DNA of 64,000 nt from Lama glama (lineage: Eukaryota), in assembly GCA_028534125.1 (NCBI GenBank), contig CM052843.1, positions 3,286,001 through 3,350,000 on the forward strand, read 5' to 3'. Below the pieces are notes generated by a model that made no database searches, was not told where the DNA came from, and was given only the letters and a program-made list of their open reading frames with translations. Shown one piece after another: positions 32,755 to 55,229 of this stretch. Position 1 is the first letter of the stretch, and every line of letters begins with the position of its first letter. A program made the position numbers and the translations under genes.

Positions 32755-33719
32755 TACCCATTTTATAGAAACTATCTTACAAACCAGCTAGAAAGCTGGG
32801 CTCACCAACTTCTAAGTGTCCAGGGAGCCAAAGCTTCCTCTGAGTGGAGACTCCTGGCTGACACCGCAGCAAAGCCTTTTAAGACTAGAGTGGGATCATT
32901 ACAAAATCTGGGTCTACTTAGTTAATGGGATTCAAGCTTAGCTACAACAGGAATGGAATCCAGGCATCCTGTCTGCCCTTTCCTGGTCCCTGCCAGGGAA
33001 TGCCGAATCAACCTCCAGCCCTGTGCAAACTGCCCAGCTCCAGGCTTGGAAGGGCCAGCAGCCGATACTCATCACGGTCCTGCAAAGCAAGACTTAGAAA
33101 CAGTCTTCCTTTGCGAACTTTGTTTCCCTAGCGCACTTCAGCGCTGTCCTTGGGAGAAGGCTGCCCGCTCACCTGGCCCAGGTGGCTGTGGTCCTCTTGC
33201 TGCCTCCTTCACTAGGATTCGTTATCTATAGATGAGGTACGGTTTTGTGCTTTCATGTCTGGTTTCCAGATGGTATCACTGGGATGAGCCGCTGTATGTC
33301 TGATACGGCTCTCTCTCTAATCTTCTCTGCCTTTTTCTACTTTGGGCGGTTTCCTGTTAACAATTTCTCTACTGTACTGCAGATGTTTTTACTTCCTCTA
33401 TCAAAATAGATGTGTATTTTACAAACCTAGAATTTTAAAAATCTTTGCAACTATGATCTTTTTCCAAAAATTAAAGTCAGTTCAGAATTAAGGAGAGCCT
33501 TAGGTGTAAAGCATTCTTGTCCATTTTCTTTTCTTTTTACATCTTCTTCCTTTCATTTCCATTTCTATTGCACTCTTAATTGGGTGCTCCAATTCACCCA
33601 GCCTCTTACATAGTGCACTCAAAGTAAGATATATAAAAGTCATAAGCCCTTCCTACTGAATACTTCCATGATGACCCATTTCTATAGGAAAAAGACCAGA
33701 AACATACATGCACCAACTC

Positions 33720-34272
33720 TTTTTTTTTTTTAAGAATAGTAAAGGAGTTTATTAGGGTGTGCTGCCATAGACAACAGCTGACCACAACGAGAGGTGCCTG
33801 TGTGAGCACTGAGGGCCCGTTGGGGGTCTTTTATAAGGTTGGGTCACAAGGCACCTGATCGGCTTGTGCACAATGCTCTGATTGGTTGCAGGTGAGGTAA
33901 GAGGTTTAGGGTCCATGAAGGGAGGTGGGGTTTGACTCTGATAAGGTGGGCTGAAACAAGCCGGCCTGAGCTATTGTGAGTTTAGGCCCTACCTAGGGCT
34001 ATTGGTTTCTTAGGGGAAACGCGTCCAGTAAAGAACGTACTTTATCCGTTGAGGGACCACAGGCAGACATCTCAGAGCCCGGGAGTGGAGGTCCCTGGAC
34101 TTGGAAGGACATCAGTTGGCCCCACATTCCCCCCGACAGACTGGCAGTGACAAATCTTTCTGTATCTACTTCCTGCTGAACTGTGGGCGTCATGCTGTCC
34201 CCGTCTACAGTGCCCATCTGCCCGGGGCTGTGAGTCCCCGGCATCCCGGCAGCCGTAAAGGTGGGAGCAGAG
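33720..34272 (-). mobile_element. Processed (polyadenylated, U5-less, 5'-truncated) ERV1 retrocopy
   Basis: Minus strand order: CAGCAGGAAGTAG (34178-34166), GGGGGGAA (34134-34127), TGTGGGG LTR start (34126), CCAAT x2, TTATAAAA (33836-33829), AATAAA (33753-33748), A12 (33731-33720); candidate TSD at 33707 and 34273. Confidence 0.72.
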
Positions 34273-35159
34273 TGCGTGCCAACTCCTTAAACTGATGTTC
34301 AGGGTCTGCTCCAAAGTATATTTGCAGTCATATGTTCTATTTCCTCTCGAAGCAAGCTCTACTTGAACAGAACGGTTTAATGCTTAATCAAATAGTGTAT
34401 GGAACCAGGGAGACTCCAGTTCACATCCACGCCCACTGGAGAGTCACTGGTCGTCACTAAGAGTCAAGTTCCTCATCTTTAACTCACATCCTTTGTCTTA
34501 AGGGCTTCTCATAAACATTTAATGCGATAATGCACATAAAGGACTTAGTACCACGATCAGAGTATCATCAGGCACAACACATGGTAGAAGCAGAAGCTAT
34601 TATTACTATGACTACTACTACTATTATTTACATGCCTGTTCCAGCAAAGACTCTTTCTCTCCCCAAGTACGTCTACCTGCCTTTTGGAGTTTAGTTTAAG
34701 TCTTGCCTCCCCTATTAATTCTTCTTTGATTAACCCACTGGAGGGTGCATCTCTCATCTGTAACCTGTTTAACAGCATCTCACATTTACTGCTAGACACA
34801 CATTGTCTGTGTTCTGATAAGGTCCTTCTCCTCCTCCTGCCTGGGGAGGCTCCTGGTGCTCACCCACGAGCTCCTGGGCGTTGAAGTCTGTCCTCCTTAG
34901 TTAAACAATGATATTAACAGCTTTAAGAGGAGGTCCGAAATCAGACTGGTACCTAATGAAAATTTTTGTCTTCTCATCATATACTGGGATCCACAAAAAA
35001 TTATTCAGATTCCTGGTTAATTATTTAGATCTCTGATGATACAACATTTTAAAAAGAAAGACATTTTCGCTGGTTGTCTGAAGCAAGACATATTAATGGA
35101 TTTACCCCATCATAGGAGCTCTACCAGAAAACTCTTCTGAATCAATAGGGTGCATCCAA

Positions 35160-55181: not shown

Positions 55182-55229
55182 CGGTTGTAGAAGTCATCTC
55201 TGTAGTAATCATAGTCAAAGACGTAACCA
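55182..55229 (-). CDS. RALYL: RALYL internal coding exon (48 nt; GYVFDYDYYRDDFYNR)
   Basis: Minus strand reads cctag|T GGT TAC GTC TTT GAC TAT GAT TAC TAC AGA GAT GAC TTC TAC AAC CG|gtatgt. Canonical AG/GT; the peptide matches RALYL as I recall it, and the split codon CG|G joins the next exon in frame. Confidence 0.96.

Follow-up and report, generated by a model that had tools for sequence, protein, structure and literature searches.

A processed copy of a short, provisionally class I endogenous retrovirus in a camelid RALYL intron, and a family with many R-only copies

An insert of approximately 560 bases on the minus strand of the window (the whole 64-kb stretch of llama DNA that was analysed), lying at positions 33707-34288 in an intron of RALYL, is very probably a DNA copy, cut short at its 5' end, of a polyadenylated RNA from a short, non-coding endogenous retrovirus (ERV). 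The copy was most likely reverse-transcribed by LINE-1 (L1), at an estimated age of 25-45 million years. The locus would represent a processed ERV copy of the HERV-W-like type; what appears to be new is the family to which it belongs, in which many copies consist of the R region only.

The insert is made up of internal sequence, polypurine tract, U3, R and 12 A (Table 1), and when the sequence was re-read all features listed in an earlier note on this DNA were found in place. That U5 is missing, as the note had proposed, follows from 22 solo LTRs of the family, which run beyond the position of the A-run and into U5. The junction between internal sequence and LTR, predicted at 34126, was confirmed by the genome's own copies, with solo-LTR matches beginning just past GGGGGGAA. 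In the internal part, positions 114-229 of an exon probe aligned to 34267-34158 and positions 253-281 to 34159-34131, and there was a small deletion relative to another copy, L003. As the copy is cut inside the last exon, its source RNA may have been either spliced or unspliced. Both CCAAT boxes reported previously are present, but only the one at 33885 is shared; the box at 34005 is private to the insert, and reads CTAAT in L002-L005 and L025. No other copies of the family were found elsewhere within the window.

Table 1. Features of the insert and of the surrounding RALYL exons (window positions)
Feature	Position	Strand	Remarks
Target-site duplication, 5' copy AAGGAGTTGGCACGCA (= flank tgcgtgccaactcctt)	34273..34288	minus	Preceded by TT; L1 endonuclease-like TT/AAGG site
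Last internal exon, 3' part (~140 nt)	34135..34272	minus	5' end cut ~110 nt past the splice acceptor of the family
Polypurine tract GGGGGGAA	34134-34127	minus	Solo-LTR matches begin directly after
U3 of 3' LTR	33808..34126	minus	Starts TGTGGGG at 34126; shared CCAAT 33885-33881; TATA TTATAAAA 33836-33829
R region	33732..33807	minus	Begins GCTCAC (start base of full-length and R-only copies); AATAAA 33753-33748
Poly(A) tail of 12 A, replacing U5	33731-33720	minus	Begins 16 nt after AATAAA
Target-site duplication, 3' copy catgcaccaactcttt	33707..33722	minus	Shares 3 A with the tail
RALYL exon upstream of insert	46198-46035	minus	Peptide 100% identical to alpaca RALYL; AG...GT borders
RALYL exon, further upstream	55182..55229	minus	Borders by eye; translation matches part of P0004 (alpaca RALYL isoform)
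RALYL exon downstream of insert	19093-18851	minus	tblastn extent

Relatives of the insert were sought in its own genome. From the 1,022 candidates of a first search, 40 were scored and 30 loci retrieved, the 22 solo LTRs being among these 30; the solo LTRs begin with TGTGGGG/TGTTGGG or nearby, and in the eight printed in full U5 is ~85-90 nt long and ends in CAACA or similar. The search with the internal part gave 67 candidates, 40 of which were scored; 30 large-contig loci were examined, and 10 small-contig or mirror matches were left out. Two-LTR proviruses accounted for five of these 30 internal-bearing loci, were mostly about 3.7 kb long, and had short duplications of about 5 nt where readable (L073, L075). 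Assuming about 2.2e-9 changes per site per year, their LTR-LTR distances of 0.13-0.20 (0.10-0.16 without CpG) translate into about 25-45 million years. In one LTR variant (L105, L066, L097, L102 and L164) R has a tandem duplication and contains two poly(A) signals, ATTAAA followed by AATAAA; retrocopies of this variant end at either signal. L191 and L203 look like members of a sister family of LTRs whose TATA-to-R spacing is shorter. Seven contigs (C44481, C82399, C89065, C90176, C104619, C125728 and C405702 of G000) matched twice in opposite orientations, which suggests mirror-image assembly artefacts, and were counted once where examined.

A Pfam scan of 18 read-through frames from six copies (stops as X) detected no pol, env or significant gag, and the frame reading TPTVQQEV, pointed out in the earlier note, belongs to no recognisable gene among them; the CAGCAGGAAG motif is compared in that note to gamma-like env ends, and no env was detected by the scan. 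The only coding trace was Gag_MA (E 0.028, below the cut-off), and the open gag-matrix stretch had three unnamed homologous proteins in two homologue searches, with a Gag_MA E of 0.007 for P0001. Because this weak gag-matrix match is the sole coding trace, the element is considered non-autonomous, and the family is only provisionally placed among class I (gamma-like, ERV1) ERVs, a placement suggested by its TG...CA LTRs, tRNA primer site, polypurine tract and integrase-type duplications of about 5 nt. The primer site of L084 matches tRNA-Ile(AAT) plus CCA at 16 of 18 nt. The family was not placed in ERV-W, given this primer site, which is Ile and not Trp/Arg, and the lack of a pol for placement; primer type itself is described as a weak classification marker (PMC6995185).

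The expectation that other copies in the genome would end in poly(A) at the same position was met by 17 of the 30 internal-bearing loci, which carry an A-rich tail at R/U5; eight have U5 (including the five two-LTR elements) and five could be assigned to neither group. Eight loci (L003, L025, L062, L072, L080, L084, L085 and L088) are full length from the start of R: they begin at GCTCAC, ~25-30 nt past the TATA box, and on reading by eye their tail is followed by the matching duplication. Four copies (L003, L025, L066 and L067) are spliced, L025 with extra middle exons, and the corresponding splice sites in unspliced copies read CCAG/GT, GG/GTGAG and TTTGAG/G. For the 5'-truncated long copies, one clear target duplication (L077) was obtained out of 13 tried; most of these copies were without an automatic duplication call because later insertions blur their 5' borders. 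Judged from the copies sampled, the family RNAs taken by L1 would include an unspliced ~3.6-kb RNA, a spliced ~1.4-kb RNA and an ~80-nt R unit, the last being the commonest.

Some loci depart from this pattern. L083 (G000:C8:37671202-37681201, minus strand) starts at R behind an L1-like target and ends in a complete 3' LTR with U5; it may have arisen by recombination between a processed copy and an LTR, or from a read-through RNA. When 3' transduction was looked for behind it, the following ~8 kb contained no convincing pair of tail and duplication. C-rich runs, possibly decayed tails, follow R in L067, L081, L088 and L097, replacing or preceding the A tail. At L068/L216 (G000:C8:62221000-62230000) the copy stops where the 3' R begins, and ~4 kb away there is an R-U5 match on the other strand, possibly as a result of an inversion.

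With respect to the window copy itself, the insert could also be an ordinary provirus remnant from which U5 and the 5' part were deleted, with an A-run and a flank match arising by chance. The two copies of its duplication do differ at 5-6 of 16 letters, so that reading them as a duplication requires CpG decay, and a looser score, blind to CpG and position, gave a p of only about 0.02. When position was taken into account (a 7-nt exact match ending within 8 nt of the homology start), however, the frequency was 59 in 126,524 window positions, so that the duplication is more than a chance match. The note had further explained three differing flank dinucleotides by decay of CpG. The comparison covered four related DNA runs, from organisms A-D and three studies. 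All of them contain both insert junctions (in run X7, the left junction with ~30 letters on the element side), with no empty site among them, and one of the four, X7, has a C at 34277 that restores one predicted CG, the right copy reading tgcgcg...; this fits the explanation, but only two of the three dinucleotides are CG in any copy. The A-run, moreover, occupies the same R/U5 position in those 17 of 30 internal-bearing loci and in dozens of pattern matches, and the family's proviruses have duplications of about 5 nt, as against 16 nt for the insert. Taken as a provirus remnant, the window copy would be a most improbable coincidence.

Target-primed reverse transcription of ERV RNA by L1, followed by 5' truncation, is almost certainly how the window copy arose, the anatomy being read directly and the enzyme deduced from it. 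The L1-processed reading given in the earlier note agrees with the missing U5, the poly(A), the long duplication, the TT/AAGG cut site and the sister copies, which display R starts, GT-AG splicing and 13-17-nt duplications. By established L1 biology, the L1 ORF2p would have nicked the target at TT/AAGG, and L1 would then have primed on the poly(A) tail and proceeded through R and U3 into the internal part, stopping after ~140 nt of it.

Copies consisting of R only were recovered by several routes. When the genome was searched with patterns of R plus A7, 56 loci were left once duplicates had first been removed and 55 after one twin was dropped (a few small-contig matches were left out), with 1, 0 and 1 matches for reversed-pattern controls; most of these loci are without U3. 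Out of 37 loci examined in a 3'-anchored sample, 17 begin exactly at R, and a 5'-anchored sample of 24 distinct loci, from which two sister-family LTRs and one gap were left out, yielded 17 R-only and four full-length copies among 21 informative loci. In total, 40 non-redundant R-only loci were obtained. Capture-recapture gave an estimate of 55-80, which is a rough lower bound, because the samples have anchors in common and all but one of the four patterns require seven A.

In R-only copies a target duplication is followed by ~79 nt of R, frequently with one extra G in between, and then by poly(A) and the second duplication. Judged against 1,332 mismatched pairs, duplication scores lay above the 95th percentile at 24 of 37 U3-less loci, and an endonuclease-like motif was found near the start of 19 out of 30 loci, compared to 195 out of 1,350 control windows. 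The base before R was G in 30 of 39 R-only copies versus T in 15 of 22 solo LTRs; in 12 R-only copies one G (and in two, a T) lies beyond the duplication. In L1 and SVA, an untemplated 5' G has been interpreted as a copy of the cap (PMC4859970; PMC2912911). The extra G does not fit a templated U3 base, as T prevails at U3/R joints, including those of L003 and L062, both of which have T at their own 3' joint yet carry an extra G at the 5' end. Two further copies, L093 and L155, begin at the same spot 9 nt inside R, perhaps at a second start site. The possibility that R-only copies are a self-propagating SINE was dismissed, given that the upstream TATA/U3 is missing, there is no promoter within R, and several LTR subtypes are represented; for the same absence of TATA/U3 and the same spread of subtypes, R-only copies look like dead ends derived from several sources.

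The R-only copies probably go back to capped RNAs that were initiated at the LTR promoter and cut at the AATAAA site of the same LTR. AATAAA follows the start by ~55 nt, so that a short capped, polyadenylated RNA can be produced from an LTR that lacks a suppressing splice donor, and the source could be, for example, solo LTRs with no splice donor downstream, which are abundant in the family (118 U5-bearing R ends found). Short polyadenylated 5'-LTR transcripts have been demonstrated in foamy virus, according to the account in PMC3694450. Among the 21 5'-anchored loci there was no R-U5-flank read-through copy, which would be proof of a solo-LTR source. Copies of the U3-R-poly(A) type, such as that in the window, are promoter-plus-R units and could act as secondary sources of RNA.

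An unlikely, though serious, alternative is that R-only copies are 'solo R' elements, formed when full-length G-R-U5-internal-U3-R-poly(A) copies collapsed between their identical R repeats, just as solo LTRs form from proviruses; the sequence between the repeats would have been lost while the copy was inserted or later, by recombination or by single-strand annealing. The product would be identical, including the extra G, which therefore does not discriminate between short RNAs and recombined full-length copies, and the duplication. Full-length processed copies do exist (eight resolved), and solo LTRs are very frequent, the 118 U5-bearing ends comparing with 55 overlapping poly(A) matches, which come from 16 chromosomal loci and from small contigs. 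With its ~79 nt, however, R is well short of the ~200 nt that efficient homologous recombination in mammals usually needs, and about half of all insertions of the 1.4-3.6-kb RNAs would have to be full length. Furthermore, 5'-truncated copies cannot collapse and should share subtypes with the R-only copies, but two R subtypes were found in 14 of 40 R-only copies and in none of the 18 longer ones (p 0.003 by Fisher's test, post hoc), a test that depends on 1-3 letters and includes at least two doubtful calls (L124, L174). This asymmetry, the only result separating the short-RNA origin from its rivals, also speaks against a jump from R to R, whereby the L1 reverse transcriptase would copy the 3' R, move to the 5' R of a looped RNA and run off at the cap. 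Proteins that bind the cap and the poly(A) tail keep the two ends of an mRNA close to each other, template switching by L1 is known, and the product would be the same; but the subtype mix of the longer copies would be expected and the observed mix differs, no other jump products occurred among the loci read, and we consider such a jump improbable.

As to the host gene, the placement of the insert in a RALYL intron in sense orientation, which the earlier note had recognised, was corroborated by exons on both sides, both on the minus strand (Table 1). The insert is located ~12 kb into an intron of ~27 kb. No RALYL exon was found in the 10 kb beyond the window start, the next exon being inside the window, and a tblastn match to a 15-aa stretch of alpaca RALYL isoform P0004 at 52661-52617 (minus strand) is possibly a small alternative exon. 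The copy is probably inert and of no consequence. Its sense orientation, intact TATA, one shared CCAAT and AATAAA, a GU/U-rich host stretch ~35-55 nt past the AATAAA, and its retention in all four related DNA runs would be compatible with an active sense promoter or a premature poly(A) site for RALYL, for the sake of which the copy had been kept. Against such a role, which we regard as very doubtful, the copy is as diverged from its relatives as these are among themselves (non-CpG K2P of 0.12-0.19 to most), and U5 is absent. Word shares of 0.12-0.28 in four RNA runs are word matches only, and no sign of expression.

The processed pseudogenes of HERV-W have, in the published descriptions consulted, R-U5 at the 5' end, U3-R at the 3' end, poly(A), a TT/AAAA-type site and a duplication, with frequent 5' truncation (PMC5016936; PMC5537654) and spliced forms (PMC6995185). 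The camelid family is like HERV-W, as described there, in those ends and in tail, site type, duplication, truncation and splicing. The window copy has four of the five HERV-W-type characters, namely no U5, poly(A) at R/U5, a duplication at a TT/AAAA-like site, and 5' truncation. By the HERV-W figures given in those sources, processed copies outnumber proviral ones in both cases, 135 to 65 for HERV-W in human and 17 to 5 two-LTR elements among the 30 camelid loci. The camelid family differs in its host, its short non-coding element, the gag-matrix remnant and a tRNA-Ile instead of a Trp/Arg primer site, and in its dominant R-only class, of which these HERV-W accounts make no mention. Family-wide mobilisation of ERV RNA by L1 has, according to PMC5537654, been described only for HERV-W, called there the sole HERV group specifically mobilised by L1, with unknown determinants, while the ERV-W relatives of New World monkeys (platyrrhines) are stated to have formed no processed copies (PMC6995185).

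Sporadic L1 retrocopies are on record for the HERV-K(HML-2) rec-like locus at 2q32.1 and for HERV-H (in the account of PMC3590776), and for ARTenvV in Hippotraginae, an artiodactyl case (likewise in PMC9604959). These, as presented there, similarly show L1 hallmarks on spliced ERV RNA, but concern single or few loci and no R-only copies, in contrast to the family-wide spread in camelids. In foamy virus, HIV-1 and MoMLV, by the account in PMC3694450, an AATAAA inside R, as also found in the camelid LTR, gives rise to a short capped polyadenylated transcript unless suppressed by a splice donor; premature polyadenylation is known in that account from RNA in cell culture, whereas in camelids it would be preserved in the germ line as a DNA fossil by way of L1. 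Short alpaca ERV1 clusters without recognisable coding domains are described as two-LTR elements (PMC8605555), and resemble the camelid family in being short and non-coding. No report of an R-only or solo-R class, or of processed copies of this family, was found in the literature searched, though older papers and repeat libraries may mention them.

It seems to us about evenly balanced whether the wider picture holds, in which a camelid ERV unrelated to HERV-W by its primer site has spread largely via L1, its commonest retrocopy being a cap-to-poly(A) fossil of an ~80-nt RNA and forming an undescribed class of R-only retroposons, probably unrecognised in other mammals, human HERV-W included. 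If so, that RNA would be the premature polyadenylation product of solo or 5' LTRs, and R-only copies would show with single-base precision where LTR transcripts start and are cleaved. A further family in which this mode of spread is general, in camelids, would also offer an independent comparison as to what makes ERV RNA an L1 substrate. Under either origin of the R-only copies, standard annotation would file them as LTR fragments, which would distort solo-LTR counts. The R-only copies matter either way, being germ-line fossils of short capped LTR transcripts or evidence that processed copies are reduced to 'solo R' elements through their 79-nt repeats.
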